From a virus, in IMG/VR virus record IMGVR_UViG_3300025678_000003, positions 1-53,473 of that record: a stretch of DNA of 53,473 nucleotides. One strand, written 5' to 3'. The notes beneath the pieces were generated by a model that had not been told where the DNA came from, made no database searches, and was given only the letters and a program-made list of their open reading frames with translations. Position 1 is the first letter of the stretch, and every line of letters starts with the position of its first letter. The position numbers were made by a program, and so were the translations under genes. Shown here piece by piece: positions 27,725 to 53,473 of this stretch.

Positions 27725-27862
27725 ATGTGGATAATTTTTGATCGACTGAACGGCTACGCAGCTATTGGCGAGCCAGCATCCCTCCTCGTCATCAATGAGC
27801 GCTGCCAGCAAATGAATCGCGAGATTGGCAGCGCACGCTATGGCATCGCGCGCGCATCATGA
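27725..27862 (+). CDS. Small hypothetical protein (45 aa)
   Basis: ATG at 27725. Its stop overlaps the ligase start (ATGA). Confidence 0.35.
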   Translation: MWIIFDRLNGYAAIGEPASLLVINERCQQMNREIGSARYGIARAS

Positions 27863-28635
27863 CCATCACCTACACCCCCGGTTTCCGCGAGCACGATGCC
27901 GGCGCTTACCTGGCGAGCGAAAAGCTGGACGGGTACCGCGCGCGCTGGAATCGTGGGCGGCTTTGGCTTCGATCTGGTGCCAGCGTGGAGCCACCTGCCG
28001 AGTGGCTTGCCCAACTCCCGCCCGTCTCGCTCGACGGCGAGCTGTGGATCGGGCGCGGGCAGTTCAACGCGCTGGCCAGCGCCGTGCGCAAAAAATCCTG
28101 TAGCCTTGGCTGGTCGCGGGTGCGCTTCATGGCATTCGACATGCCCGATGAGCCCGGCCCGTTTCATCGCCGCGCGGCAGCCCTGGCGGTGCTGGCCAAG
28201 CGCCATCGCAACGCCGTTTTTGATGTCGTGCCGCAAGTCCGCCTGCAGGACATCGTTCAGACAAAAACCATCTTCCGGGGCATCGTCGCCGAAGGCGGTG
28301 AAGGGCTCATGCTGCACCGCGCCGACGCCCTGCAGCCCGACCGACCCGGCGCCCTGGTCAAGATGAAGCCCGAGCACGATGCCGAGGGCACCGTCATCGA
28401 GCAGATCCAAGGCGCCGGCAAACACGCGGGCCGCCTGGGCGCACTCACCGTGCTGCTACCCAACGGCAAGACGTTCAAGCTCGGCACCGGTTTTAGCGAT
28501 AGTGACCGGCTGTATCCGCCCCGTCTTGGCAGCGTGGTCACGTTCACCTACAACGAACTTACCCCCGCCGGCATTCCACGCTTCGCCAAGTTTCTGCGCG
28601 AGCGCCCGGCCTGCACCCTGCCCACCGCCGCATGA
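27859..28635 (+). CDS. Minimal ATP-dependent DNA ligase (Lig E-like, 258 aa, no signal peptide)
   Basis: Adenylation motif I SEKLDGYRA, LDGELW, FMAFDMP, EGLMLHR, LVKMKP, and an OB-fold tail ending GIPRFAKFLRER. The order and spacing resemble the small Haemophilus/Neisseria-type ligases. Confidence 0.85.
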   Translation: MTITYTPGFREHDAGAYLASEKLDGYRARWNRGRLWLRSGASVEPPAEWLAQLPPVSLDGELWIGRGQFNALASAVRKKSCSLGWSRVRFMAFDMPDEPGPFHRRAAALAVLAKRHRNAVFDVVPQVRLQDIVQTKTIFRGIVAEGGEGLMLHRADALQPDRPGALVKMKPEHDAEGTVIEQIQGAGKHAGRLGALTVLLPNGKTFKLGTGFSDSDRLYPPRLGSVVTFTYNELTPAGIPRFAKFLRERPACTLPTAA

Positions 28636-41060: not shown

Positions 41061-41414
41061 ATGAAGCTCAACCCCACCCCCACCCCACCCCGCATTCGCG
41101 TGCTCGAATTTCTCGAAAAGAACCCCGGCCATTTCGCCCACGGCGAAGGCGCCGCCACGCTGCATTGCCTGCAACTCGGCTGGGCCGACTACGCACGCAA
41201 CGACCGCGACGACATCATCGGCCAACACCTCACCGACCAAGGCCGCGCCATCCTCAGCACCCACCGCCTGGCACAGATCGCAAAGCCGAATCCAATCATC
41301 TGCCACCACGATTGTTTTCTTGGCTGCAAGATGCCGCAAGACTGCAAGGCAACGAACAGCAACTCCGTAGCCTCGATGCAGCGCAGCGGAATCGAGGGAG
41401 CCATCCATGCTTGA
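41061..41414 (+). CDS. Hypothetical protein (117 aa); 3' end runs through REP-like copy A
   Basis: ORF. The C-terminal ...VASMQRSGIEGAIHA is encoded by the repeat. Confidence 0.5.
   Translation: MKLNPTPTPPRIRVLEFLEKNPGHFAHGEGAATLHCLQLGWADYARNDRDDIIGQHLTDQGRAILSTHRLAQIAKPNPIICHHDCFLGCKMPQDCKATNSNSVASMQRSGIEGAIHA
41366..41398 (+). repeat. REP-like GTAG-hairpin element, copy A
   Basis: CGTAGCCTCGATGCAGCGCAGCGGAATCGAGGG. Confidence 0.85.
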
Positions 41415-41631
41415 CGCCGACCCCGCCAGCATCACCAAACTGGGCAAAGTCACCATTCACGGCAACCCCAAGCCCGGCCAAAACCGCATCGTCGTGCGCG
41501 GCTTTTCAGGCAACGGCACCACCTGCCGCGACATCAGCGCCCTCGCGCTCGTATGGGCCATCGGCGAGCTGCAACGCGAACTGATGGAAACCCTCAAAGC
41601 GCCCGGCGGCGGCGACGTGGGGGTTGACTAA
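41407..41631 (+). CDS. Hypothetical protein (74 aa)
   Basis: The SD (GGGAG) is supplied by the 3' arm of copy A. Confidence 0.5.
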   Translation: MLDADPASITKLGKVTIHGNPKPGQNRIVVRGFSGNGTTCRDISALALVWAIGELQRELMETLKAPGGGDVGVD

Positions 41632-41633
41632 TC

Positions 41634-41903
41634 ATGGGTGAAGCCAAAACCCGAGGCACCCGCGAGCAGCGCATCGCGCAAGCGATCGAGCGGGACGAAC
41701 GCAAAGCCGCCGTGCGTCGCGCCGAGCGCGCACGCCAGCGCGAGGAAGAACTACGCCGCTACGAAGAAGCCCGCGCCCAAGCCGAGCAAGCCGGCAAAGC
41801 GCCGCCACCCCATCCGGCAGACCTGCGTAGCGAAAGGCTCAAAGCAAGAGCGTTGCTCGCTGGCGCTTTCGGTGCACTCGCATCAATGAACCACTACCGC
41901 TAA
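41634..41903 (+). CDS. Hypothetical charged/helical protein (89 aa)
   Basis: ORF. Confidence 0.5.
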   Translation: MGEAKTRGTREQRIAQAIERDERKAAVRRAERARQREEELRRYEEARAQAEQAGKAPPPHPADLRSERLKARALLAGAFGALASMNHYR

Positions 41904-41917
41904 TACCAAGGACCACC

Positions 41918-42292
41918 ATGAAAAAGCCAGCATCGCCAGCCACCAAACTGAATCCCGCAATCTTGGCCAAACACAAGTCATTGTCTGCCGCCCACGAAGC
42001 GGCAGGCGAAAAACTGTGGGCCTACGAAAAAGAGCAACGCGAAGCGCTCCGCAAAACTCACCCCATCACCGCCGGCAGCATCCTGGTGCGCCAGCGCCCG
42101 GAGTACACCGACACCTACTACCGCGTTGAGGAAGTTTGCCCCACATTCCACGGCAACGGAGAAATCCAGTACCGCATTTCACGCTGCAACAAACGCGGCG
42201 AACGCACCGGCGTCTCACCCAGCTACAACCGCGTCAGCGCCGGAAACGACAAATACAAAGTCTTCAAGCTGGCACCGCGCACGAAGGACTAA
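41918..42292 (+). CDS. Hypothetical protein (124 aa)
   Basis: ORF preceded by AAGGACCACC. Confidence 0.55.
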   Translation: MKKPASPATKLNPAILAKHKSLSAAHEAAGEKLWAYEKEQREALRKTHPITAGSILVRQRPEYTDTYYRVEEVCPTFHGNGEIQYRISRCNKRGERTGVSPSYNRVSAGNDKYKVFKLAPRTKD

Positions 42293-42298
42293 CCAGCA

Positions 42299-42330
42299 CG
42301 TAGCCGTGATTAGCGAAGCGTAATCGAGGG
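42299..42330 (+). repeat. REP-like GTAG-hairpin element, copy B
   Basis: CGTAGCCGTGATTAGCGAAGCGTAATCGAGGG. Confidence 0.85.
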
Positions 42331-42336
42331 AACACC

Positions 42337-42564
42337 ATGCCCATCAACTGGACCACCACCCCCATCGCGCCGGAAGACACGGCGGTACCGATCGCCAAGA
42401 TCATGGCCGAGCTGGGCATCAAGGCGCGCAGCACCGTCTACGAGCGCAGCAAGGCCGGCAACCTGCCGCCGCTGTACAACGACGGCCGCTGCACGTTCTG
42501 CTGGCGCAGCCACCTCGACCTTTACAAGAACAACCTGAAACCGATCTACGGGAAAGCGGCATGA
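42337..42564 (+). CDS. AlpA/excisionase-like HTH protein (75 aa)
   Basis: IAKIMAELGIKARSTVYERSKAGNLPPL. Near the integrase. The SD (GAGGGAA) comes from copy B. Confidence 0.45.
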   Translation: MPINWTTTPIAPEDTAVPIAKIMAELGIKARSTVYERSKAGNLPPLYNDGRCTFCWRSHLDLYKNNLKPIYGKAA

Positions 42565-42827
42565 GCACATATCCAATCACCATCACCGGAACACCGGAAG
42601 AAATCGGCCACAAGATATTTCAGCAGTTCTGCATCCCCGCCATCCGCGAGACCAGCAAACACCACGACGCGCAAAAGTTGGCCAACCTCTATATCGGCTT
42701 TGTCGTGTCAGCCTTTGGAGCGATGGCCGCCGATTTCGGATACGACAACGCACTGGTAGGCGCAGAAAAAATGCTGCAACACTTTCGCGACGCAAAAGCC
42801 GATTGCAGCGAGCCCACCATCAACTAA
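42561..42827 (+). CDS. Hypothetical protein (88 aa), lower GC
   Basis: ORF. Its 3' end overlaps the integrase 3' end by 4 nt. Confidence 0.5.
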   Translation: MSTYPITITGTPEEIGHKIFQQFCIPAIRETSKHHDAQKLANLYIGFVVSAFGAMAADFGYDNALVGAEKMLQHFRDAKADCSEPTIN

Positions 42828-44047
42828 CCAACCCTCAACCCCTCCAAATGATCCGCCCAAGCCTGCATCATCGCGCGCCGCTCCGGCAGGTATTTGGCAT
42901 GGTTGTACGCCGCTCGCACGCGGTCGGGGTCGATGTGCGCAAGCTGCGCCTCGATCACATCATGCCGCCAGCCCATCTCATTGAGCGCCGTGCTCGCGAT
43001 CGAGCGAAAGCCGTGCCCGGTCATCCGCTCCTTGTAGCCCATCGTCTCAATAGCCTTGAGCACCGTGTTATCACTCATCGGGCGCGTCGGGTCACTGCGG
43101 TTGGGGAACAGCACCGTGGCCGGCCCCGTGCGCTGTATGCGGCCATGCACGCGGGCATGCTCGATCAACAGCCCGAACTGCGCCACCGCCTGGCGAGCCA
43201 GCGGCACCACATGGGGCCGCCGCGCCTTCATGCGGGCAGCGGGTATCTGCCACAGCGCATTGGGCAAGTCGAGCTCGCCCAGCCGCACCTCGATCAGCTC
43301 GCTGGTGCGCACAAAGGTCAACGCCAGCAATTGCAGCGCCACGCGCGAGAGCATGGCGCCGGGGTAGGCATCCATCGCGCGCAGCAGGCCGGGCAGCTCA
43401 TCCAGCGGCACAAAGGCATGATGTCGCTCGGTGCGGCTGGCGAACACATCCACCGGCGCCACATCGGCGCACACGTTGCGCACGTCGTCATGCTCCGCTG
43501 CCGCGTAGCGCATCACGCGGCCGCAGCACTCAAATACACGCCGCGCCACCTCGCCGTAACCCTGCGCCTCGATCGCCTTCACACAGCGCACGAAGTCAGC
43601 CGCCCGCAGCGCGCCCACATCACGCGCCCCGAGATCCGGGAACACGTAAAGCTCCAATCGGGCGAGCACCTGGTCGGCATACTTGATCGACCGGCTGCCG
43701 CGCCAGCCCGCATGCCAGCGCCGGGCGATCGCCTCGAACTGCCGCGCCGGGCGCACCGCCTGGGCCACGCCGGCCGCGCGTTCAGCCTGCTGCCGGTGCG
43801 CTGGGTCAACACCCTGCCGCAGCGCCAAGCGCGCCGCATCGCGCGCCACGCGGGCAGCCGCCAAACCCACCTCGGGGTAACGCCCCAGTGTCAGCCGCTT
43901 CTCAACACCCGCAACGCGGTACTTCCACCGCCAAGCCTTGGTGCCAGCGGCAGACACCTCGAGGTAAAGCCCACCCGAGTCAGCAAAACGCGAGTAGGCG
44001 CGATCGGCAGCGCACACAGCGCGCCGGCAAGCAGCATCAGTCAACAT
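42824..44047 (-). CDS. int: Tyrosine integrase, P4-type (407 aa from the ATG)
   Basis: N-terminal arm-binding pattern LTDAACRRA...GGLYLEVSAAGTKAWRWKYR. C-terminal HGFRSIASTALNE...AQLAH...AYNHAKYL catalytic region. Confidence 0.9.
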   Translation of the reverse strand: MLTDAACRRAVCAADRAYSRFADSGGLYLEVSAAGTKAWRWKYRVAGVEKRLTLGRYPEVGLAAARVARDAARLALRQGVDPAHRQQAERAAGVAQAVRPARQFEAIARRWHAGWRGSRSIKYADQVLARLELYVFPDLGARDVGALRAADFVRCVKAIEAQGYGEVARRVFECCGRVMRYAAAEHDDVRNVCADVAPVDVFASRTERHHAFVPLDELPGLLRAMDAYPGAMLSRVALQLLALTFVRTSELIEVRLGELDLPNALWQIPAARMKARRPHVVPLARQAVAQFGLLIEHARVHGRIQRTGPATVLFPNRSDPTRPMSDNTVLKAIETMGYKERMTGHGFRSIASTALNEMGWRHDVIEAQLAHIDPDRVRAAYNHAKYLPERRAMMQAWADHLEGLRVG

Positions 44048-44310
44048 GGGGGCAAAACCCAAGGGAACGCGGACGATGCCCCCAATTCTGCCCCCATCAC
44101 GCGCCAGTCACAACCGAACAGCAACAAACACTAACGGACACCAATCAGGAGCCAGCACTATGGAAACAACGGAAAATCAAACACCAGCGAACGCCAGCGA
44201 ACAGGGCGATGGCGGAGGGACGGACAGCCACGAATCTGGCCGCCACCCGCATATCACCGATGCTTTCGTCAAGCCGGCATCTAGTCATGCCCCCAATTTT
44301 GCCCCCATCA
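44045..44310. promoter_or_regulatory. attP-like region with arm-type repeats
   Basis: ATGCCCCCAATTCTGCCCCCATCA (44076-44099) and ATGCCCCCAATTTTGCCCCCATCA (44287-44310) are 23/24 identical. An inverted half-copy, catgggggcaaaa, lies at 44045-44057 and overlaps the int start. Confidence 0.5.
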
Positions 44311-44336
44311 TCAACGCACCGGAACCGTTTCTCGGC

Positions 44337-44792
44337 ATGGTTGATTCGGGTGAAACAGTATTACTCGAAGGCAATGATGCTGTCGGCCTGTTTTTCTGTA
44401 TCGACACAGGCGACATGGCGTACTGCGCCAGCACACTTCAAACGGTATGCCACAACCTCGCCCACCGTGCCGGCTGGTGGACCGACTGGGCAAGTCTTGA
44501 GCACGCCAGCATCACGCAAAACCCCTACTGTTTCAGCAACAAGCTGATGCTCATTGTCAGCGAGCTGTCCGAGGCGATGGAGGGCGATCGCAAGGGCATC
44601 AAGGACGACAAGCTGCCCCACCGCGACATGCGCGAGGTAGAGCTCGCCGACGCCGTTATCCGCATCTTTGACCTGGCCGGCGCCTACGACATGGACCTTG
44701 CCGGCGCCATCGTCGAAAAACTCGCCTACAACCAGCAGCGCGCCGATCACAAGCCAGAGAACCGCGCGCAGGCTGGCGGAAAGGCGTACTGA
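44337..44792 (+). CDS. MazG-like nucleotide pyrophosphohydrolase (151 aa)
   Basis: KLMLIVSELSEAMEGDRKG...EVELADAVIRIFDLAGAYDMDLAGAIVEKLAYNQQR is the all-alpha NTP-PPase pattern. The N-terminal extension in the track was rejected. Confidence 0.7.
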   Translation: MVDSGETVLLEGNDAVGLFFCIDTGDMAYCASTLQTVCHNLAHRAGWWTDWASLEHASITQNPYCFSNKLMLIVSELSEAMEGDRKGIKDDKLPHRDMREVELADAVIRIFDLAGAYDMDLAGAIVEKLAYNQQRADHKPENRAQAGGKAY

Positions 44793-44968
44793 TGAAAGCC
44801 CTGTTCGCCAGCAGCGCGATCTGCTTCATCGCGTTTGTTGTTCTCGCGTTCATTGACGAAGCAGTATACGGGCGTCGCTCATCACCACTTACGCCGATCA
44901 GCTTCTTGCTAATCGTCGCCACAATCGCCACACTTATCAGCGGCATTGCCGTGTGGGGGTTTGCGTAA
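44792..44968 (+). CDS. Small membrane protein (58 aa)
   Basis: Not in the track. Product begins MKALFASSAICFIAFVVLAFIDE and contains LLIVATIATLISGIAVWGFA. Stop-start overlaps on both sides. Confidence 0.45.
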   Translation: MKALFASSAICFIAFVVLAFIDEAVYGRRSSPLTPISFLLIVATIATLISGIAVWGFA

Positions 44969-45186
44969 TGCCCCGCACCGTATCAGTCGGCACCATGATC
45001 GAACAGATCGACGGCCTGCGCGGCAGCACCGACATGCTGCGCAAAGAGCCCGACCTGACGGAATGGGAGGAGGGTTTTGTCAACAGCGTGGTCGCCAAAT
45101 ACAAAGCGGCCAGCAAAGACAGCACCACCCTCTCAGACAAACAAGTCGCCATCGTTGAGCGCATCTGGCGAAAGCATTTCGCATGA
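44968..45186 (+). CDS. Hypothetical protein (72 aa)
   Basis: ATG at 44968, coupled to its neighbours. Confidence 0.5.
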   Translation: MPRTVSVGTMIEQIDGLRGSTDMLRKEPDLTEWEEGFVNSVVAKYKAASKDSTTLSDKQVAIVERIWRKHFA

Positions 45187-45683
45187 GCCGCACTCTAAGC
45201 CTCAGCGGCCATCAGTCGGCACGCATGAAAAACGACGAATGGCTAACCCCTCCCGAGATCCTAAAAGCACTCGGCAATTTTGATCTTGACCCATGCTCGC
45301 CATTGAATCGCCCGTGGCCGACCGCGGGAACACATTTCACCATTGCTGATGACGGCTTGAAACACGAGTGGTTCGGACGCGTATGGATGAACCCGCCATT
45401 TGGAGCCGCCGCAGCAGCATGGATGCGCAAATTGGCGTGGCACGGCAACGGTATCGCGTTGATCCCGGCGCGCACCGAAACGCGCATGTTCTTCGAGTCG
45501 GTTTGGGGAGTCGCCCAAGCGATTCTGTTTTTGCGTGGTCGACCGCACTTTCACTACGTCACCGGCGAGCGCGCCGCATTCAACAGCGGCGCACCGATCT
45601 GCCTGGTGGCTTACGGCACCAGCAACGTCTACGCACTGCAGAACAGCAGACTTGGCCAAACCCTATTGATTGACGCCGCATGA
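45183..45683 (+). CDS. dam: Phage-type DNA N6-adenine methyltransferase (166 aa)
   Basis: NDEWLTPPEILKALGNFDLDPC plus the catalytic VWMNPPFG motif. Typical small phage Dam layout. Confidence 0.8.
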   Translation: MSRTLSLSGHQSARMKNDEWLTPPEILKALGNFDLDPCSPLNRPWPTAGTHFTIADDGLKHEWFGRVWMNPPFGAAAAAWMRKLAWHGNGIALIPARTETRMFFESVWGVAQAILFLRGRPHFHYVTGERAAFNSGAPICLVAYGTSNVYALQNSRLGQTLLIDAA

Positions 45684-46465
45684 CCACCAAACAACACGGC
45701 CTGCTATTCACCGAGGCAATGATCCGCGCGTTTCTGCGCACGCAGCACCCGAAGCGGCAGACGCGGCGATTGCCTACGGCCGCGAATTCACTGGTGGACG
45801 GGTACGGCGTCAGCGCCAAGCGCTGGGCGGAGATGAAGCTCGACTGGTCAACAGCATATGTTGACGGCGGACCAAGCCCCGCCGGCAACCCCGGCCCGTA
45901 TCTACACGTCAAGCGCGGCGACTCAACCGATGGCGAGTTATGGGCACGCATCTACCCGCGCATCCAACCGGGCGCCCTGCTCTATGCCCGCGAGGGCACA
46001 TGGGAGCGCCCCGAACGCAGCGAGCGCGACATGCGCGAAGGCGCCGATACGTGGGAGCCTTTCGCCTACGACGCCGACTGCATTTTCGACGACGACAAAC
46101 CCACCCTCAAGGCGCAGGGCTGGAAGCACCGCAACAGCATCCACATGCCCCGCCGCGCCGCGCGCATCGTCCGCACCGTGGCCAGCGTGCGCGCCGAACG
46201 ATTGCAAGTCATCAGCGACCTCGACGCCATGCAGGAGGGACTGACCCAGCTATCAAAGGACGGCGGCCAGACGTGGAAATGGGGCATCCCCGACCGCGAC
46301 GGCTGGCCCGGCAATGACGACATCGGTTGGCCATGGCAACTGTGGGAACAAAGCCCATACGAAGCCTACAGGGCGCTCTGGATGGGCCTGCACGGTGTCG
46401 CGTCGTGGCAAACCAACCCGATCGTATGGGTCTACGACCTGGCGCCGGTGAGCGAGGCGGCATGA
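45680..46465 (+). CDS. ASCH-like domain protein (261 aa)
   Basis: The N-terminal LLFTEAMIRAFLRTQHPKRQTRRL motif (K-x-QTRR) is common in phage ASCH-like proteins next to methyltransferases. The call is tentative. Confidence 0.4.
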   Translation: MTTKQHGLLFTEAMIRAFLRTQHPKRQTRRLPTAANSLVDGYGVSAKRWAEMKLDWSTAYVDGGPSPAGNPGPYLHVKRGDSTDGELWARIYPRIQPGALLYAREGTWERPERSERDMREGADTWEPFAYDADCIFDDDKPTLKAQGWKHRNSIHMPRRAARIVRTVASVRAERLQVISDLDAMQEGLTQLSKDGGQTWKWGIPDRDGWPGNDDIGWPWQLWEQSPYEAYRALWMGLHGVASWQTNPIVWVYDLAPVSEAA

Positions 46466-46698
46466 GCCAATACGGAGACCCACGCCGCATCGGCGGAACC
46501 CTGTTCATGCCGCTACTTGATACCGAGCCATTCTGCACACCAAGGCGCAACGACAAGATCATGCGCGTCATCGCAGTGCACGCGCCTTACGATAACGCAC
46601 CGCAGCAGCCGACCACCGAAGACAAAGCCACCGCCAACCAAATGGTCGGGCGCAACTACGGCGACTGGCTGACGATACCAACGAGCGAGGCGGCATAG
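46462..46698 (+). CDS. Hypothetical protein (78 aa)
   Basis: ATGA coupling at 46462. Confidence 0.45.
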   Translation: MSQYGDPRRIGGTLFMPLLDTEPFCTPRRNDKIMRVIAVHAPYDNAPQQPTTEDKATANQMVGRNYGDWLTIPTSEAA

Positions 46699-46700
46699 CA

Positions 46701-48248
46701 ATGCGCTTCCTCTCCGTCTGCTCCGGCATCGAAGCCGCCTCCGTCGCCTGGGCACCGCTCGGCTGGAAGGCTTGGGCCTTCAGCGAGATCGAGCCCTTTC
46801 CGTGCTCACTGCTCGCGCATCATTACCCCAACGTGCCGAACCTCGGCGACATGACCAAATTTCAGGATTGGCCCTTACCCGATGAACCAATTGACCTTCT
46901 TTGCGGAGGCACCCCCTGCCAGTCATTCAGCGTCGCCGGACTCCGAAAGGGACTGGCTGACCCGCGTGGCAACCTCATGCTCACCTATCTTGCCATTGCT
47001 GACAAATATCGGCCCCGCTGGCTGGTTTGGGAGAACGTCCCCGGTGTCCTGTCATCAAACGACGGACGAGATTTTGGCACCTTCCTCGGCGGGCTGGGGC
47101 AACTCGGGTATGGGTTCGCCTACCGCGTTCTTGACGCTCAATACTTCGGAGTGGCCCAGCGACGCCGCCGTGTGTTTGTTGTCGGACATCTTGGAGACTG
47201 GCGCCGTGCCGCCGCGGTACTTTTTGAGCGCCACAGCCTGCAGGGGCGTCCTGCGCCGCGCCGAGAAACGGGGCAAGGCGTTGCCGGCACCCTTAGCGAA
47301 CGCACTCAAGGCGGTGGCGGACTCGGCACCGATTTCGAGCTCGGCGGCGGATTGATACCGCAGATCGTCGGCCAAGCCATGAGCGCCAAATGGGCCAAGG
47401 GCACCGCAGGGCCCGCAGGGCCCGCAGGGGATGAGCACCACAACCTGATCGCGGTTCCCGACGTCAGCAGCACACTACTCGCGCAAGGCAACAACACCGG
47501 CGGAGACCGACCGCCGGGCACCCCCGTTGATACGTGCGATCAGCTCATTCCTTACGTCACCCACGCCCTGCGCGGCGAAGGCTTCGACGCCAGCGAGGAC
47601 GGCACCGGGCGCGGCACGCCGTTGGTGCCGATTGCCTTCAGCGCCAAGGACCACGGCGCCGATGCCATGAGCAATCTTGCGCCCACGCTGCGCGCCGGCG
47701 GCCATGCCGACAGCCACGCCAACGCAGGCGTCATGCCGGCCATCGCCTTCGACCCGACGCAGGTCACCAGCGCCACCAATCGCAGCAACCCGCAACCGGG
47801 CGACCCATGCCACACACTGACCAAAGGCGCGCACGCGCCCGCCATCGCCATCCAAGGCGCCGCCACCCGCGAAAACCCCGCCAGCGGACCAGACGGCATC
47901 GGCGTGCGCACCGACAACGCCGCCTACACGCTTGAGGCGCGCAGCGAAGTGCAAGCCGTGCAAACCGGAATGCAAGTGCGCCGACTCACCCCGCGCGAAT
48001 GCGAGCGGTTGCAGGGGTTCCCCGACGACTACACACGAGTGCCGCACGGCAAAAGCAAGGCCACCGCCGATGACGTCATCGCCATTGAAGACGACAACGG
48101 CGTTTGGCACTACTACAAACCCGCCGCCGACGGCCCGCGCTACAAAGCCCTCGGCAACTCCTGGGCAGTGCCGTGCGCGCGCTGGATCGGCGAGCGCATT
48201 GCTGCCGCTGACAACATCCCAATCACCATCGAAAGCAAAGCAGCATGA
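46701..48248 (+). CDS. dcm: DNA (cytosine-5)-methyltransferase with a long variable region (515 aa)
   Basis: Motifs in order: SVCSGIEA (I), GGTPCQSFS (IV), WENVPG (VI), QRRRRVFVVG (VIII), RECERLQGFPDDYT (IX), LGNSWAVP (X). Confidence 0.9.
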   Translation: MRFLSVCSGIEAASVAWAPLGWKAWAFSEIEPFPCSLLAHHYPNVPNLGDMTKFQDWPLPDEPIDLLCGGTPCQSFSVAGLRKGLADPRGNLMLTYLAIADKYRPRWLVWENVPGVLSSNDGRDFGTFLGGLGQLGYGFAYRVLDAQYFGVAQRRRRVFVVGHLGDWRRAAAVLFERHSLQGRPAPRRETGQGVAGTLSERTQGGGGLGTDFELGGGLIPQIVGQAMSAKWAKGTAGPAGPAGDEHHNLIAVPDVSSTLLAQGNNTGGDRPPGTPVDTCDQLIPYVTHALRGEGFDASEDGTGRGTPLVPIAFSAKDHGADAMSNLAPTLRAGGHADSHANAGVMPAIAFDPTQVTSATNRSNPQPGDPCHTLTKGAHAPAIAIQGAATRENPASGPDGIGVRTDNAAYTLEARSEVQAVQTGMQVRRLTPRECERLQGFPDDYTRVPHGKSKATADDVIAIEDDNGVWHYYKPAADGPRYKALGNSWAVPCARWIGERIAAADNIPITIESKAA

Positions 48249-48838
48249 ACACCGACCACTCACAACCAACCCACCCCGTAGCCGCGATGCAGCGCAGCGG
48301 AATCGAGGACGCCTACCCGCCCAACGATATGGCGAAATCATTTACAGCCGATATGTTGCCCATCACCCTTGAGCAGCGCGTCGAGAACCTGGAGCGACAG
48401 GTAGCCAGCATCGTGCGCGCTGGCGCCGCCAACATCATGGCCGCTCGCGGGGCGGACAAGGCACCGGGCGCCGCGCTACCGCCACCCGAGAAGCCCGTCG
48501 ACCCGCTGGCCGGCATCCCGGATGCCGCAACGGCGCCGAAGGTGCGGCGCGTAGTGTGTGCGGCCATCCTGAAATTGCCGCATGGCTATCAGGTGATCGG
48601 CCCACGTCACCACGATTTAGTCATGCAGACGCAAGATAAGTGGGCCGTGGAAGCCGGCGAATATACGGAAAACTCAATATTTCCAGACCGGGAGAACCAA
48701 GGCTTCATCGACCAATACGGCGTTTTCATGACCCGCACCGAAGCCTGGCAGGTGGCGCTTGCGGCCGGGCAGATCCGATACCGCTGCGGCGGCGACACCG
48801 CCAACGGCGGCACCCTTTACTCAGAGAACTTGTACTAA
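48245..48838 (+). CDS. Hypothetical protein (197 aa; start may instead be the ATG at 48329)
   Basis: ATGA coupling to the dcm stop. The N-terminal ...VAAMQRSGIEDA is encoded by copy C. The C-terminal QGFIDQYGVFMTRTEAWQVALAAGQI...LYSENLY is a recurring phage motif of unknown function. Confidence 0.5.
   Translation: MNTDHSQPTHPVAAMQRSGIEDAYPPNDMAKSFTADMLPITLEQRVENLERQVASIVRAGAANIMAARGADKAPGAALPPPEKPVDPLAGIPDAATAPKVRRVVCAAILKLPHGYQVIGPRHHDLVMQTQDKWAVEAGEYTENSIFPDRENQGFIDQYGVFMTRTEAWQVALAAGQIRYRCGGDTANGGTLYSENLY
48277..48308 (+). repeat. REP-like GTAG-hairpin element, copy C
   Basis: CGTAGCCGCGATGCAGCGCAGCGGAATCGAGG. Confidence 0.85.
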
Positions 48839-48841
48839 ATC

Positions 48842-49087
48842 ATGAGCAGCAACACCATCCAAGCCAAATACCGCAAAACGCAGCGCGGTGAAGCGCTTGT
48901 CCTGCAAGGCGAGCAGAGCAACAACATCCTCCAAGCCAAATGCCGCAAACCGGAGTGCGCCCACGTCTGGACGGTCGCCCATCTGCCGATGGACCTACTT
49001 GATGTTGCGACATGCGCCAAGCGAGCCACCTGCCCCAAGTGTGCCGACACAAAACCCCTGGTCAACCCAACCTCCAAAAAATCATGA
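48842..49087 (+). CDS. Zinc-ribbon-like small protein (81 aa)
   Basis: CRKPEC...CPKC cysteine pairs. Confidence 0.5.
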   Translation: MSSNTIQAKYRKTQRGEALVLQGEQSNNILQAKCRKPECAHVWTVAHLPMDLLDVATCAKRATCPKCADTKPLVNPTSKKS

Positions 49088-50067
49088 GCACCGAAACCGG
49101 AATTGGCTGGACCGACAGCACCTTTAACCCGTGGATGGGCTGCACCAAGGTCAGCCCGGCCTGCGATCACTGCTACGCGCAAACGCTGGTCGAGGGGCGA
49201 TTCAAGCGCGCGGAGTGGGGGCCGGGCAAGCCGCGCGTGCGCACCAGCGCGGCGAACTGGAAGCTTCCGCTGCAGTGGGAGCGCGAACACGAGGCGTTCT
49301 ACCGCAAGCACGGCCGCAACCGGCGGGTGTTCTGCGCGTCGCTGGCGGACGTGTTTGACAACGAGGTTGATCCCACATGGCGGGACGATCTGTTCCGCCT
49401 GATCGCCGCCACGCCGCACTTGACCTGGCAACTGCTGACCAAGCGCATCGGCAACGTCGAAAACATGCTAGCGTTTGCGTTGATGTCGCAACCCGCTCCA
49501 ATCAATCCTCGCGCCGCATGGCCGTGGCCAAACGTCTGGCTCGGCATCACCATCTGCAACCAGCAGGAGGCGGACCGAGACATCCCGAAACTGCTGGCAG
49601 TACCGGCGGCGAAGCGGTTTCTCTCGATTGAGCCGATGCTGGGGGCGATTGATCTGCGATCTTGCTACCTGCATCGCATGACACTCTGCGGCGAATGCCC
49701 GTCGTCAGACGAAGGCACACCGATTGATTGTCCATGTGCCGATGAGCGGATTGACTGGGTCATCGCCGGCGGCGAAAGCGGACCGCACGCGCGGCCGTCG
49801 CATCCCGATTGGTTCCGCTCGCTGGCCGCGCAATGCCGCGCCGCTGGCGTCGCGTTCTTTTTCAAGCAGTGGGGGGAGTGGTGCGACGCGGACAACGGCC
49901 CCGACAACGACAACCACACCGATGAATGCTGGGTACACATGGACGGCACCGTTCATCGCGGTGAAAACGGCGTTGATTTTTTCCAGACGTATCCGGTATA
50001 TCGCTGGGGGACCAAGACTACCGGCAACCTTCTCGACGGCGTCAAGCACGAAGCATTCCCCGATTAA
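49084..50067 (+). CDS. Phage Gp37/Gp68 family (DUF5131) protein (327 aa)
   Basis: GIGWTDSTFNPWMGCTKVSPACDHCYA ... FLSIEPMLG ... IDWVIAGGESG ... FFFKQWGEW is the family signature. Confidence 0.8.
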   Translation: MSTETGIGWTDSTFNPWMGCTKVSPACDHCYAQTLVEGRFKRAEWGPGKPRVRTSAANWKLPLQWEREHEAFYRKHGRNRRVFCASLADVFDNEVDPTWRDDLFRLIAATPHLTWQLLTKRIGNVENMLAFALMSQPAPINPRAAWPWPNVWLGITICNQQEADRDIPKLLAVPAAKRFLSIEPMLGAIDLRSCYLHRMTLCGECPSSDEGTPIDCPCADERIDWVIAGGESGPHARPSHPDWFRSLAAQCRAAGVAFFFKQWGEWCDADNGPDNDNHTDECWVHMDGTVHRGENGVDFFQTYPVYRWGTKTTGNLLDGVKHEAFPD

Positions 50068-50073
50068 CCCTTT

Positions 50074-50105
50074 CCCTCGATTACGCTTCGCTAATCGAGG
50101 CTACG
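50074..50105 (-). repeat. REP-like GTAG-hairpin element, copy D (inverted)
   Basis: The reverse complement is CGTAGCCTCGATTAGCGAAGCGTAATCGAGGG, 30/32 identical to copy B. Confidence 0.85.
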
Positions 50106-50130
50106 GAGCCACGGGACTACAGGAGCCACC

Positions 50131-50307
50131 ATGATTATCAACACCAACCACGCGGCAAGTTTGCCCGCACCACAACAGGCAGGAGACCGACAGCTACCTG
50201 TTCCAGCCGAGATCATTGAAGCCGCCGAGATGATTACCGAATACTTCAACCGGCACAACATCAAGACGTTTGCCGTTGGCGGCATACAGAACCGCGTCGA
50301 CGCATGA
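50131..50307 (+). CDS. Small hypothetical protein (58 aa)
   Basis: AGGAG, 5 nt, then ATG. Not in the track. Confidence 0.45.
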   Translation: MIINTNHAASLPAPQQAGDRQLPVPAEIIEAAEMITEYFNRHNIKTFAVGGIQNRVDA

Positions 50308-50657
50308 ACCACCGCACCCGCCTGAAACGGCAGGCCGCAACGATGTATCGGCGGCACAGCAAGCACTACCTTAGCGCCGATCGGTCGCGAGCATGGTATC
50401 GGGCGATCGCATCGCTGCACGCCTATCACGCGGCGAGCCAAGCGCTTACGGTTTCTGCTACGAACGCAGCAGCGGCCGGCCAGCGCCTCGTTGAGCAAAT
50501 GCGACTGATTCAGCTTTACTCGCTACCCGACCAACACAACCTGTCGCACCTGGTCAGCAACGCCATGAACGCTTTTGTACGGGAGCGCATGGGACCCGGT
50601 TATGCCGGACCACGCCGCACCCCAGCGATGCACACCCCCGCTACGCCGGGAACTTGA
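50304..50657 (+). CDS. Hypothetical protein (117 aa)
   Basis: ATGA coupling. Its 3' end overlaps the convergent gene by 17 nt. Confidence 0.5.
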   Translation: MNHRTRLKRQAATMYRRHSKHYLSADRSRAWYRAIASLHAYHAASQALTVSATNAAAAGQRLVEQMRLIQLYSLPDQHNLSHLVSNAMNAFVRERMGPGYAGPRRTPAMHTPATPGT

Positions 50658-50886
50658 CGATGCCGAACTTGAGCGCTAGGAAGCCCACCAGCAGCATCAC
50701 GCCCCACCATAGGCGTTTGAGGATACCCTTACCGGTCTCCTTCGCGAGCTGATCGAACACCTCTTTGACGGTGGCTTTCGCCACCGCCTCGGCTAGCCGC
50801 TTGAGCTCATCCTCACTCATGCGGCGGCGACGATCAAGTATTTCGTTGCCGTAGTCGTCGGTGACATGATCCCCCTCCTCAGCCAT
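50641..50886 (-). CDS. Tail-anchored small membrane protein (81 aa)
   Basis: Charged N-terminus and a single C-terminal TM (LWWGVMLLVGFLALKFGIV). Confidence 0.55.
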   Translation of the reverse strand: MAEEGDHVTDDYGNEILDRRRRMSEDELKRLAEAVAKATVKEVFDQLAKETGKGILKRLWWGVMLLVGFLALKFGIVKFPA

Positions 50887-50888
50887 GG

Positions 50889-51848
50889 CTACTTGCCCGC
50901 CGTGCAGTTGCTGGTGGCCTGGATACTGAGCGGGCCGCCCGATGCGCCGGGGCCGCCTGCGCCACCCGCGCCAGCACTGCCCGAGGCGCCACCCAGCGCG
51001 CCAGCGCCGCTGCCGCCGTTGCCGCCCGAGGCTGCATTACCACCCGCCCCGGCCATGCCGCCGCTGCCGCCGTTGCCCGCCGTGCCGCCCACCGTCTGCG
51101 GGCATTGCACGGTGTTGGTTCGCACCGCGTTGCCACCCAAGGCAACGTTACTGTCATCGCCCGTGATGTTGATGGTGGGCTTGCTGCCAACCGTCGTCAA
51201 GCCGTCGATCGCATGACCGCCCAAGTCGCGCAGCGCGCCAGCCGTGTCGGCATTGACACCCCGGAACATCGCATACATGGCCTGCGTGGTGGCCGCATTG
51301 TCACGGCTTTGCGCCTTTTGCACACCAGCCTGCACCACGCCCAACGTGATTTGCCCGATGGTTGGGATCAGCGGCGAATTGAGCACCGCCTTGCCGAGAT
51401 CGGCCATCACCTCGCCGGTGGACTTGAGCGGCTGCAGCACCGGCGGCGCGATCGGCGCCGGCGCGGCGATCAGTTTGGACTCATCGGCCGCCTTGCCGCC
51501 ACCGTTCGCCCCTTCCATCGCCAGCGCCATGCCGATAGCCGCCTTGCCACCGGCATCGGCCTGCACGGCAATGGTCATCATGGCGCCATACTTCACACGC
51601 TTGGCTTCGGCTTCGGCAGTGAGGCGCTTTTCCTGCAGGGCGAGCAGATCCTTGTTGGCCTGCACCGTGCGATCGGCTTGCTTGTCGTTGTGGGCAAGCG
51701 TTTCCCGGTACATATCCAGCGTCAGCTTGTTCTGCGCGGCGATCTGCGTGGCGCTGGCGCCGCAGCCAGCAACAGCAATGGCCACCAACCCGCACAGCAC
51801 AATGGCTGCAAGGCGTTTTCCGATAGAGTCGAGTTTTTGCAAAATCAT
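50889..51848 (-). CDS. Lipoprotein with a Gly-rich C-terminal tail (319 aa)
   Basis: Signal peptide plus lipobox (AAIVLCGLVAIAVAGC). The C-terminus reads GGTAGNGGSGGMAGAGGNAASGGNGGSGAGALGGASGSAGAGGAGGPGASGG. Confidence 0.65.
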   Translation of the reverse strand: MILQKLDSIGKRLAAIVLCGLVAIAVAGCGASATQIAAQNKLTLDMYRETLAHNDKQADRTVQANKDLLALQEKRLTAEAEAKRVKYGAMMTIAVQADAGGKAAIGMALAMEGANGGGKAADESKLIAAPAPIAPPVLQPLKSTGEVMADLGKAVLNSPLIPTIGQITLGVVQAGVQKAQSRDNAATTQAMYAMFRGVNADTAGALRDLGGHAIDGLTTVGSKPTINITGDDSNVALGGNAVRTNTVQCPQTVGGTAGNGGSGGMAGAGGNAASGGNGGSGAGALGGASGSAGAGGAGGPGASGGPLSIQATSNCTAGK

Positions 51849-51892
51849 TGGGTAGCCCTTGTGGGTGTTGGCTTAGACGGGGAAAGGTATTG

Positions 51893-51925
51893 CGTAGCCT
51901 CGATGAAACGCAGTGAAATCGAGGG
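51893..51925 (+). repeat. REP-like GTAG-hairpin element, copy E
   Basis: CGTAGCCTCGATGAAACGCAGTGAAATCGAGGG. Confidence 0.85.
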
Positions 51926-51936
51926 CAACCGTGCGC

Positions 51937-51968
51937 CCCTCGATTCCGCTTTGCTAATCGCGGCTACG
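51937..51968 (-). repeat. REP-like GTAG-hairpin element, copy F (inverted; forms a doublet with E)
   Basis: The reverse complement is CGTAGCCGCGATTAGCAAAGCGGAATCGAGGG. It is 11 nt from copy E. Confidence 0.85.
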
Positions 51969-51981
51969 GCGGATGCGGCGG

Positions 51982-52260
51982 CTATCGAAGCCTGGCGGTT
52001 TCGGCTTCGCGTCGCACGTCGTCGATCAGGTCGGCGCAGCGGTGATGGCGTTGCGCGTTTTCTACGTGCAGCGGCGCCTCGATCGCGCGGCGGCAGGCTT
52101 CGGCATCTTCCGCACAGGTCAGCCACTCGGGCGGCAGTTGCCGGGGCCGCTCACAGCGGTCCAGCCGTTCGACGAGATCGTCACTCAGCGCCGCGAAGTG
52201 CGTGGTTGAGCAGGCGGTAATACTCAGCGCGAGCAGCGCTATCAAAGCGAGCGTTTTCAC
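51982..52260 (-). CDS. o-spanin (outer-membrane lipoprotein, 92 aa, GTG start)
   Basis: VKTLALIALLALSITAC gives a signal peptide plus lipobox. AAGGA lies 8 nt upstream. Overlaps the i-spanin 3' end by 80 nt in another frame. Confidence 0.65.
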   Translation of the reverse strand: MKTLALIALLALSITACSTTHFAALSDDLVERLDRCERPRQLPPEWLTCAEDAEACRRAIEAPLHVENAQRHHRCADLIDDVRREAETARLR

Positions 52261-52522
52261 GGGCGAGATCCTTGGCAAGTGCATCGGCCTGCTGGCGGGT
52301 GGCGGTGGCCAGCGCATCGGTTTCGGCATCACGGGCGCGGGCCTTGGCGTTGTTCACCTTGGCCTGGGCGGCAATCGCGGCATCACCACGACGAATCGCC
52401 TTGAGCTCCGTCTTGGCCGAGAAAAAGGTGGACAGCCACCACAGCAGCAACCCCACCAGCACCAGCGCCACCAGCGTGAGCGTGAGCTTGACGGCGGCGG
52501 AGAGATCGGCGAGCGGGTTCAC
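52181..52522 (-). CDS. i-spanin (113 aa, GTG start)
   Basis: GTGA overlap with the endolysin stop. N-terminal TM (VKLTLTLVALVLVGLLLWWL) followed by a coiled coil. Confidence 0.65.
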   Translation of the reverse strand: MNPLADLSAAVKLTLTLVALVLVGLLLWWLSTFFSAKTELKAIRRGDAAIAAQAKVNNAKARARDAETDALATATRQQADALAKDLARENARFDSAARAEYYRLLNHALRGAE

Positions 52523-53142
52523 AGCTTGCCCCGATACTTCCCCGCCCGCGCCACCACGTCGGGCGCGTATTTGCGGCTGATCTGGCAGGCGGTCAGGCGG
52601 GTGCCGGGGATGACGGCTTTGCCGCCGGCGCAAGCCTGCTCGACATGGCCCGCCCAGCGGTCAGCGTTGCAGCCCTTGGTGACCTGGCACAAACGGCGAT
52701 CAGCGCGGATGCCGCCGACGCCGCGGTTGTATGCCGTGAGCACCGGGTAGAGCGGGTCATCGAACAGCGGCGACAAGGCGCGGTGATTGTCGCGATTCTT
52801 GAGCACCAGCGCACGGAGCTGGTAGGTGGAGTCACCCACGTTCTCCCACGACCAGCCGGCCAGTTCAGCGCGGTGCGCCGCCCGCATCTCGGCCAATGCG
52901 TCGAAGCGGCCGAACACGCGGGTAATTTGCCCGAGGCCGGCCCCTTGCTCGCGCGACGTGCGGAACTCCACGCGGGGGTTCCAGCACTTTCTCGGGAGTG
53001 GACAGGCGGTTTCGTGGTCGACCTGGCCCGCCAGAATAAAGGCAGGGACCGGGGACCGCAGGCGCGAAGCCTCCCGCGCCAGTACAGGCAAGTGCGGCGC
53101 CGATTGCGGCGGCAAAGCAGGCGGCAAGGCGGCGAGTGGCAC
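52519..53142 (-). CDS. Endolysin, SLT-type lytic transglycosylase (about 207 aa; start uncertain)
   Basis: VDHETAC...REQGAGLGQIT...LTAYNRGVGGI resembles the E-S/T, GLMQ and AYNxG motifs of SLT domains. Lies between holin and spanins. The GTG at 53142 follows the holin stop. Confidence 0.65.
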   Translation of the reverse strand: MPLAALPPALPPQSAPHLPVLAREASRLRSPVPAFILAGQVDHETACPLPRKCWNPRVEFRTSREQGAGLGQITRVFGRFDALAEMRAAHRAELAGWSWENVGDSTYQLRALVLKNRDNHRALSPLFDDPLYPVLTAYNRGVGGIRADRRLCQVTKGCNADRWAGHVEQACAGGKAVIPGTRLTACQISRKYAPDVVARAGKYRGKL

Positions 53143-53144
53143 GG

Positions 53145-53473
53145 CTAGACACCACGCGACAGCGCCGTGACGGCGACCACAAAGATGCACGCCACCTCGA
53201 CCAGCGCGATCCGCAGCGTGACAATAGCCGCCGCCACGTTGCCAGCCTTGGCCAGCTCGTAGAACTCCTTGCCCTTTACCTCGGGCACAAGGAACTTGCG
53301 CGCGTTGTAGGCGATCGCCACGCCGACCACCGACCACACCGCCGAGAGCCCGAACAGCTTGACATCGCGCCAGCCAAAGGCAAAGCCCAAAGCCACCAGC
53401 AGCGCCACCGTCCACATGGTACGCACGGTGAACAGCGAGGCGATGGGACCGAAAAACTCTTTGACACGATCCC
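53145..53473 (-). CDS. Holin-like membrane protein, 3' part (joins to 203..128 across the circular junction)
   Basis: Same frame as the 1..203 segment via the 127-bp overlap. Hydrophobic segments MWTVALLVALGFAFGW, LFGLSAVWSVVGVAIAY and VAAAIVTLRIALVEVACIFVVAV. Confidence 0.7.
   Translation of the reverse strand, partial: DRVKEFFGPIASLFTVRTMWTVALLVALGFAFGWRDVKLFGLSAVWSVVGVAIAYNARKFLVPEVKGKEFYELAKAGNVAAAIVTLRIALVEVACIFVVAVTALSRGV
53347..53473. repeat. Terminal direct repeat identical to 1..127
   Basis: Read directly. Confidence 0.95.

Follow-up and report, generated by a model that had tools for sequence, protein, structure and literature searches.

We analyzed IMG/VR virus record IMGVR_UViG_3300025678_000003 over its full 53,473 nucleotides (nt) (here called the window), the genome of a temperate siphovirus that carries six copies of a short hairpin element belonging to a bacterial family of repetitive extragenic palindromic (REP) sequences. 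Bases 1-127 of the window are repeated exactly at 53347-53473, and an independent contig (L234) bridges the window ends, which makes the window a complete circular assembly of 53,346 bp. Assemblies of several samples in JGI, ENA, and Logan contain the same phage at >99.8% identity and with all six copies; samples that hold it include JGI 3300009710, 3300025597, and 3300009768 and ENA ERZ764804 and ERZ724020. A minus-strand, lambda-like late operon encodes the small and large terminases, gpW, portal, S49 protease, major head, major tail, tape measure, and tail proteins; past the window origin it runs on into a lysis cassette, which contains a holin-like gene and an open reading frame (ORF) for a spanin-like lipoprotein. 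The phage is temperate, because it encodes a tyrosine integrase, and REP copies flank the integrase gene on both sides. The arm that bears them carries Dcm and Dam methylases, a DUF5131 gene, a T4_Y16D-like gene, and small ORFs. Two of the copies form an inverted pair resembling a REP doublet forming hairpins (REPIN) (Table 1).

Table 1. REP copies and integrase gene of the phage (positions in the window)
Feature	Position	Core	Strand	Description
REP copy A	41366..41398	31 nt, 41367-41397	+	core GTAGCCTCGATGCAGCGCAGCGGAATCGAGG, the perfect family consensus
REP copy B	42299..42330	30 nt, 42300-42329	+	most degenerate copy; two stem mismatches
REP copy C	48277..48309	31 nt, 48278-48308	+	sequence of copy A with G at stem position 3
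REP copy D	50074..50105	30 nt, 50075-50104	-	GTAGCCTCGATTAGCGAAGCGTAATCGAGG; perfect 9-bp stem, GCGAAGC loop
REP copy E	51893..51925	31 nt, 51894-51924	+	GTAGCCTCGATGAAACGCAGTGAAATCGAGG; left half of inverted doublet
REP copy F	51937..51968	30 nt, 51938-51967	-	right half of inverted doublet
E/F doublet	51893..51968		.	REPIN-like: inverted REPs with GTAG outward, 13-nt spacer
Tyrosine integrase	42824..44062		-	Phage_integrase 2e-24, Arm-DNA-bind_3, Phage_int_M

The initial annotation had read the six copies directly from the sequence, and pattern and profile searches found every one of them at the same place and on the same strand. The pattern GTAGCC-NN-GAT-N11/12-AATCGAGG matches the six copies and nothing else in the window, and the arm AATCGAGG itself has exactly seven exact occurrences there, all inside the copies. 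For CCTCGAT-N5-25-ATCGAGG, the window holds 3 exact matches versus 0.01 expected, and a looser whole-element search of the window gave nothing convincing beyond the six. A profile built from 89 bacterial copies recovered exactly the same six, with E values of 6e-11 to 5e-5 (copy A, 38.3 bits and E = 6e-11; copy E, 35.8 bits; copy B, 19.5 bits) and a next best E value of 0.44. This search detected no copy in the window outside 41366-51968, in agreement with the annotated absence of the element from the structural arm. In a general repeat search, the REP family was the only convincing repeat family of the phage genome. With the E/F doublet counted as one, there are five REP sites, and confinement of six copies to 10.6 kb of the 53.3-kb circle has a probability of ∼0.2-0.8% under simple uniform placement.

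When the copies are aligned with 25-nt flanks, their likeness starts sharply at C-GTAGCC and stops at AATCGAGG(G). Because it stops sharply at both borders, we regard the copies as short elements that are dispersed in the genome. They are not leftovers of a single duplicated segment, an origin that had been named in advance as speaking against the REP interpretation. All six show the features of GTAG-type REPs: GTAGCC, a stem of 7 to 9 bp, and a core of 30 to 31 nt. The annotated length of 32 to 33 bp gives way to cores of 31 nt (A, C, and E) and 30 nt (B, D, and F), and only A, D, and E have perfect stems. The 3′ arm is invariant in all six copies. At position 3 of the 5′ arm, T is found in A, D, and E and G in B, C, and F; the opposite A is unchanged, which leaves the latter three with an uncompensated mismatch. 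B and D differ at two stem positions.

The family to which these copies belong was identified by scanning one representative genome per species (185,579 species) with GTAGCC-NN-GAT-N8-18-AATCGAGG. At least 120 loci matched, about half of them chance matches with arbitrary loops. The other half of the listed loci form a tight 31-nt family, GTAGCCTCGATG-n-AGCG-n-AGCG-n-AATCGAGG, of which the profile found at least 117 copies in at least 60 bacterial loci among the matches listed. The element is thus not absent from bacterial genomes; its absence had been set beforehand as an outcome that would weigh against a host origin. Isolate carriers include Methylomonas defluvii, M. methanica, Methylomicrobium lacus (a complete genome), Rhodopseudomonas palustris 2.1.18, and “Candidatus Methylobacter favarea”; carriers among metagenome-assembled genomes (MAGs) come from Methylococcales, Methylotenera/Methylophilaceae, Burkholderiales, Casimicrobium/Usitatibacteraceae, and Alcaligenaceae. 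The core of phage copy A is identical to bacterial copies at four loci (L057, L112, L117, and L120) and that of copy C to one (L094); these identical cores are found in Methylomicrobium, Casimicrobium, Burkholderiales-type MAGs, and an Alcaligenaceae MAG. Among the matches listed, single genomes have several loci (at least 5 in Crenothrix and at least 4 in MAG JPNA_metabat.25), and two loci (L072 and L079) hold 7 to 8 copies per 8 kb.

Many of the chromosomal copies are paired as inverted doublets, with GTAG facing outward and ∼19-25 nt between the partners. The E/F doublet of the phage shows the same organization, combining inverted REPs, a short spacer (13 nt, in contrast to the longer chromosomal spacing), and a single long hairpin, as expected of a REPIN. 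Over its whole length it aligns at 76-79% identity across ∼80 nt with chromosomal doublets (L083, L112, L038, L140, and L099), and the start of its spacer, GCAACCGTG, is common to the chromosomal doublets of L094 and L132. Beyond the REPs, sequence comparison revealed nothing in common between the window and the bacterial loci.

In bacteria, the family is physically linked to REP-associated tyrosine transposase (RAYT) genes. A motif screen of the fetched loci followed by tblastn yielded five such genes, encoding proteins of ∼175 amino acids (aa) that are 49-68% mutually identical, each located ≤60 bp from family copies (L129, L097, L071, L072, and L106) in a Methylomonas, a Methylobacter, a Methylotenera, R. 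palustris, and an unclassified proteobacterial MAG. In four of these loci (L071, L097, L072, and L129), the RAYT gene is flanked on both sides by inverted family copies. The two RAYT genes that were scored match Pfam Y1_Tnp and the NCBIfam equivalog model NF047646, “REP-associated tyrosine transposase,” with 187 and 170 bits (cutoff, 80). In L129, the RAYT stop codon is the TAG of the downstream GTAG, as Di Nocera et al. (PMC3733652) also noted for REPs of the GTAG type. The initial annotation had called the phage elements REP-like, and this reading is borne out by the occurrence of the same 31-mer family in proteobacterial chromosomes, often as inverted doublets that flank these transposase genes. 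As also annotated, the phage itself has no Y1/RAYT-like ORF, based on Pfam searches of 30 ORFs and tblastn with two RAYTs (best E value, 0.02). Bacterial chromosomes, and not the phage, carry the gene for the cognate RAYT of this REP family.

Across Alpha-, Beta-, and Gammaproteobacteria with G+C contents from 37% to 67%, the 31-mer hardly varies, while the adjacent RAYTs are only 49-68% identical. This near-invariance is partly biased by the fixed search pattern, but the breadth of the family is still unusual, as REP families are usually lineage-specific. In the bacterial loci the family also forms tandem arrays, with a 47-bp period in a proteobacterial MAG (L032 3006-3177), 133-bp REPIN units beside the R. 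palustris 2.1.18 RAYT gene (L072 846-1218), and inverted pairs 289 bp apart that are repeated four times (L079 2640-6068).

The hairpin of the family is conserved as a structure, as its inner stem pairs covary. Across 61 distinct 31-mers of the bacterial family, 37 have G-C and 19 have A-T at pair 15-21, and 45 have C-G and 12 have T-A at pair 16-20. In total, 43 cells changed on both sides compared with 18.3 in shuffled alignments, a value reached by 0 of 500 shuffles, and the signal collapses in slid registers; this test is informative for the two inner pairs only, the outer stem being preset by the search pattern. The initial annotation proposed folding the elements. In the phage, DNA folding recovered the hairpin in every copy except the degenerate B (z = -0.11), and folds were clearly better than shuffles in D (-8.7 kcal/mol; z = -2.4) and E only. 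Single-copy folds of A, B, and C equal shuffles at best. The E/F doublet folds as one long hairpin, with an RNA energy of -40.4 kcal/mol (z = -4.65) and a DNA energy of -18.7 kcal/mol.

The phage copies lie at gene ends and in short gaps. Copy A overlaps the final 16 codons of ORF 41061-41414. Its end lies 9 nt ahead of the ATG at 41407, and its 3′ arm contains the Shine-Dalgarno sequence (GAGGGAG) of the 74-aa ORF 41407-41631. Copy B fills a 44-bp gap between ORF 41918-42292, whose stop codon is 7 nt upstream, and the 75-aa ORF 42337-42564, whose Shine-Dalgarno sequence (GAGGGA) again lies in the 3′ arm of the repeat. Both motifs are located at -9 to -13 from the ATG, and GGAG-type sites of other phage genes are equally spaced. 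Copy C is in frame within the 5′ part of the T4_Y16D-like gene (48245-48838) and encodes 11 residues (PVAAMQRSGIE). Copy D, reversed, begins 7 nt past the stop of the DUF5131 gene (50067) and precedes ORF 50131-50307. The E/F doublet separates two minus-strand genes, the last lysis gene and a 319-aa lipoprotein gene (50889-51848), and is upstream of the latter; copy F lies 13 nt downstream of the stop of the spanin-like gene (51982-52332). Copies B, D, and F are thus all placed 7 to 13 nt after stop codons. REPs elsewhere have been described as lying close behind stop codons, between unidirectional genes, and occasionally within genes (Di Nocera et al. 2013, PMC3733652), and the placement of the phage copies matches these descriptions. 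All copies are probably transcribed as hairpins within operons. A promoter scan found no sigma-70-like promoter near any copy. We rejected the possibility that the copies are intrinsic terminators, as no T-run follows any of them and 0 of 27 terminator-like sites from a terminator scan overlap a copy. A pipeline-called 78-aa plus-strand ORF (51973-52209), which would make E/F a divergent promoter region, was also set aside as probably spurious in favor of the minus-strand spanin-like lipoprotein ORF.

Related phage contigs show both conservation of the copies and polymorphism around them. Copies A, C, D, and E/F are at the same sites in the relatives found at 89-95% identity. One relative (L323; 89-90% identical) has copy A in place and a 94-aa ORF instead of copy B, so that this site is occupied by a different 292-bp segment (window 42293-42336 versus L323 926-1225) and is not a precise absence; copy B is present in another (L324; 95% identical). 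In L325 and L326 (95% identical), D and E/F are kept and the DUF5131 gene is absent. Here, copy D is identical, copy F is the canonical 31-mer, and copy E has a 3′-arm mismatch. The DUF5131-loss junction (window 48991-50059 versus L325 ∼11785) has 5 nt of microhomology and lies 10 nt from copy D. Gene gain and loss right beside copies B and D thus place REPs where mosaic modules meet. In the comparison with L325, the window differs at 4 of 92 REP bases, versus 5.1% in the surrounding 3.4 kb, and we therefore see no sign of strong constraint or homogenization in the REP bases.

Homologues of the Y16D-like protein at 63-86% identity all have the REP-encoded peptide PVA[SA]MQRS[GE]IE, and the stem of the repeat is perfect in homologues P0121-P0124 and in L320-L322. 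In L320-L322, the ATG of the gene and the REP are kept behind three different upstream genes (Dcm, Dam-like MethyltransfD12, and DUF5131), and all indels around copy C are multiples of three, which indicates that copy C is translated and travels with the gene. No REP copy was present in more distant relatives, comprising L237, 80 DUF5131-bearing IMG/VR loci (≤56% identity), and 80 metagenome integrase loci (≤60% identity); L237 is syntenic with the window and too diverged for an empty-site comparison. In INPHARED we found no close phage relative, with only a methylase matching, at 78-80%.

A pattern scan of IMG/VR (2.9 million contigs) returned 25 matches, all of them chance matches with neither the family loop nor a profile match, and the profile found no family copy in 1.5 Mb of fetched viral loci. 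Searching 50,697 phage and 72,556 plasmid records with the E/F doublet gave no match, in a search that only near-identical copies would pass at the E-value threshold. As a control, a classical Escherichia coli REP returned only short fragments, mislabelled bacterial contigs, and one complete P2-like phage. These results can be set beside published work, in which mobile genetic elements, including prophages, lie in “REP deserts” (Loper et al. 2012, PMC3390384), RAYTs are absent from horizontally mobile agents (Bertels and co-workers), and REPINs are almost exclusively vertically inherited, with horizontal establishment requiring a compatible resident RAYT (Bertels and Rainey and co-workers). 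A search of the available library of papers returned none on REPs in phage genomes, and a search with the element sequence returned only an unrelated primer.

Several clues bear on the host. The tetranucleotide usage of the phage is nearest to that of betaproteobacterial/Burkholderiales MAGs, which weakly suggests a betaproteobacterial host affinity. The best match (L050; r = 0.90) is also, among the matches listed, the only locus with the 30-mer variant seen in copies B, D, and F. The integrase is P4-like, which makes a tRNA 3′ end its probable attachment site; its closest relative comes from activated sludge, and a terminase with 64% identity occurs in an NCBI MAG. Separately, we observed that metagenome contigs of this phage (L233 and L236) and of a relative (L323) start or end inside REPs: L233 starts from window position 41378, L236 extends to window position 48279, and L323 starts from base 2 of copy A. 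This suggests that the repeat is frequent enough in the samples to break assembly graphs, a hint of a REP-rich host.

Considering all of these observations, we conclude that the six elements are members of the bacterial GTAG-type REP/REPIN family and that they were likely (probability of about 0.8) inserted in trans by a host RAYT during lysogeny and subsequently inherited in the phage lineage. A prophage stage in the host chromosome means that a host RAYT could act on the phage, and because the phage has no RAYT of its own, the copies must depend on a host enzyme. We envisage that the phage integrated in a RAYT- and REP-carrying host, probably a Burkholderiales-type betaproteobacterium from wastewater, and that the host RAYT would have copied REP/REPIN units into insertion-tolerant sites of the nonstructural arm. 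Such sites would include short gaps just past stop codons, the end of the lysis operon, and the poorly constrained ends of two ORFs. The copies would then have become ordinary heritable parts of the phage, drifting at about the background rate. As side effects, the genes next downstream of copies A and B now have their ribosome-binding sites within the 3′ arms of these hairpins, and copy C adds 11 residues to its protein. The clustering within 10.6 kb most likely reflects tolerated insertion outside the tightly packed late genes.

Other observations weigh against insertion by a host RAYT. RAYT linkage and multiple loci per genome were seen in other bacteria that carry the family, not in a host of this phage. 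Among the relatives there is no clean pair of filled and empty sites, given the different segment at site B in L323. The copies are old enough for relatives at 89-95% identity to share them, and we saw no case of recent transposition. Recombination with host DNA, although improbable, could also have brought the copies in, and the clustering (∼0.2-0.8%) could reflect selection for function and not mere tolerance.

Selection for function leads to a reading in which the REPs, still host derived, were kept for useful work; this would add to insertion by a host RAYT without excluding it, and we regard it as a tentative possibility that is more doubtful than probable. REP hairpins in E. coli affect mRNA stability and translation, and plausible roles in the phage are protection of upstream mRNA 3′ ends or attenuation of read-through between modules (both for B, D, and E/F) and coupling or damping of translation via a hairpin-embedded Shine-Dalgarno sequence (A and B). 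The retention of A, C, D, and E/F at 89-95% identity although neighboring genes differ is consistent with such roles, as are the usual phage spacing of the ribosome-binding motifs in A and B, the positions of B, D, and F 7 to 13 nt past stop codons, and the very stable RNA hairpin of E/F. However, stems decay uncompensated (in B, C, and F of the window and in E of L325), and copy B is replaceable by an ORF, which together argue against strong selection. In addition, REP bases change at about the background rate, the lack of T-runs leaves no copy able to serve as an intrinsic terminator, and single-copy folds of A, B, and C do not exceed those of shuffles.

Alternatively, the copies could have arrived together with host DNA by illegitimate or homologous recombination, such as aberrant excision or moron capture, and not by RAYT insertion. 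The presence of copies on both sides of the integrase in a mosaic arm, with gene gain and loss beside B and D, is compatible with this route. Yet the likeness to bacterial loci and among the copies ends exactly at the REP borders with no shared host flank, the flanking genes are typically phage genes (methylases, DUF5131, Y16D-like, and spanin), and six separate captures of a bare 31-mer are unlikely; we therefore consider capture improbable.

The initial annotation also offered phage RNA operators or nut-like sites with boxA- and boxB-like parts as alternatives, that is, phage-specific regulatory sites (including repressor or translational operators) that merely resemble REPs; despite the hairpin with its conserved 5′ flank, the location in early/accessory operons, and the intergenic position of E/F, this is very improbable, because bacterial chromosomes hold identical 31-mers beside RAYT genes, copies are in both orientations relative to transcription with one inside coding sequence, the family is absent from distant phage relatives (L237 and the 80 DUF5131-bearing loci), and Rfam has no match. 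We rejected the operator and nut-like readings also on the basis of uncompensated stem decay and occurrence of the family in bacteria without phage context. As to a lambda-type nut site, lambda nut sites share with the phage copies a conserved flank plus hairpin and an occurrence in early operons of lambda-like temperate phage, whereas the phage copies have no boxA consensus, number six in both orientations (D and F are reversed), include C inside coding sequence, belong to a RAYT-linked bacterial family, and have no promoter-like sites in their region.

Comparison with other known systems also places the elements closest to GTAG REPs and REPINs with their RAYTs (Nunvar 2010, PMC2817692; Bertels and Rainey 2011, PMC3116915; Di Nocera 2013, PMC3733652). 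They share with these a 5′ GTAG followed by an imperfect palindrome, a length of 30-31 nt, inverted doublets that form long hairpins, members that flank RAYT genes in bacteria, placement after stop codons, and occasional in-frame intragenic copies; the difference is that the phage copies reside in a packaged, complete phage genome without a RAYT. The ends of IS200/IS605 elements and their nonautonomous derivatives are similar in having a subterminal hairpin and a Y1 transposase acting in trans, and the family-adjacent RAYTs match Pfam Y1_Tnp. Unlike those elements, the REP unit lacks a transposase gene, defined left and right ends, and a target tetranucleotide, and it occurs as a single 31-mer or a doublet. 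Rickettsia palindromic elements and intragenic REPs (Di Nocera 2013) resemble copy C, which adds 11 in-frame residues to a poorly conserved N-terminal region, and copy A, which forms the C-terminal codons of an ORF, but the gene carrying copy C moves among mosaic phage genomes with the REP inside.

The start-associated and extended start-associated sequences (SAS/ESAS) of cluster K mycobacteriophages are short, phage-specific repeats that occur in one orientation just upstream of gene starts and contain the ribosome-binding site. Copies A and B resemble them in lying upstream of starts with a ribosome-binding site. Unlike SAS/ESAS, the phage copies include two in reverse orientation (D and F) and one inside a gene (C), and they belong to a bacterial family.

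The genome has additional features apart from the REPs. It encodes a Dam-type methyltransferase (45183-45683), a 515-aa Dcm-type DNA methyltransferase (46701-48248), and a small ATP-dependent DNA-ligase-like protein (27859-28635) with an OB domain (E = 2e-24). The lysis-type cassette on the minus strand (51982-52332, 52181-52633, and 53145-53426) encodes proteins with transmembrane helices and an ORF with a lipobox (LALSITAC) that resembles a spanin. Beyond the E/F doublet, the 319-aa lipoprotein gene on the minus strand has a lipobox (VAGC) and no family match, and it may be a moron. Upstream of the DUF5131 gene, a small ORF (48842-49087) contains a 44-nt direct repeat (48844-48887 and 48916-48959; 84% identical, 72 nt apart). 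No tRNA genes were found in the window, and Rfam gave 0 matches at the gathering score across its whole length.

This phage carries a known kind of element, a member of a REP/REPIN family, in an unusual place, and the finding bears mainly on the horizontal movement of REPINs. It contrasts with the view of REPs and REPINs as chromosomal and vertically inherited, with prophages as “REP deserts.” A complete phage genome recovered from several independent metagenome assemblies stably carries five REP sites, among them a REPIN-like doublet, a translated copy, and two copies that act as ribosome-binding sites. It provides a system for asking whether REPINs travel horizontally, how long they survive without their transposase, and how REP hairpins affect neighboring genes. 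In practice, the family can help to link uncultured phages to their hosts, and its copies cause breaks in metagenome assemblies. We also raise, as an unlikely but consequential idea, that the phage is a natural vehicle moving REP/REPIN units between bacterial lineages. Because the 31-mer is nearly invariant despite RAYTs that are 49-68% identical, delivered REPs could be recognized by the RAYT of a new host. If the vehicle idea is true, REPs recognized by a resident RAYT could seed or refresh the REPIN population of that host. This would constitute horizontal transfer of “genomic symbionts” held to be strictly vertical and could help explain the distribution of the family across proteobacterial classes.

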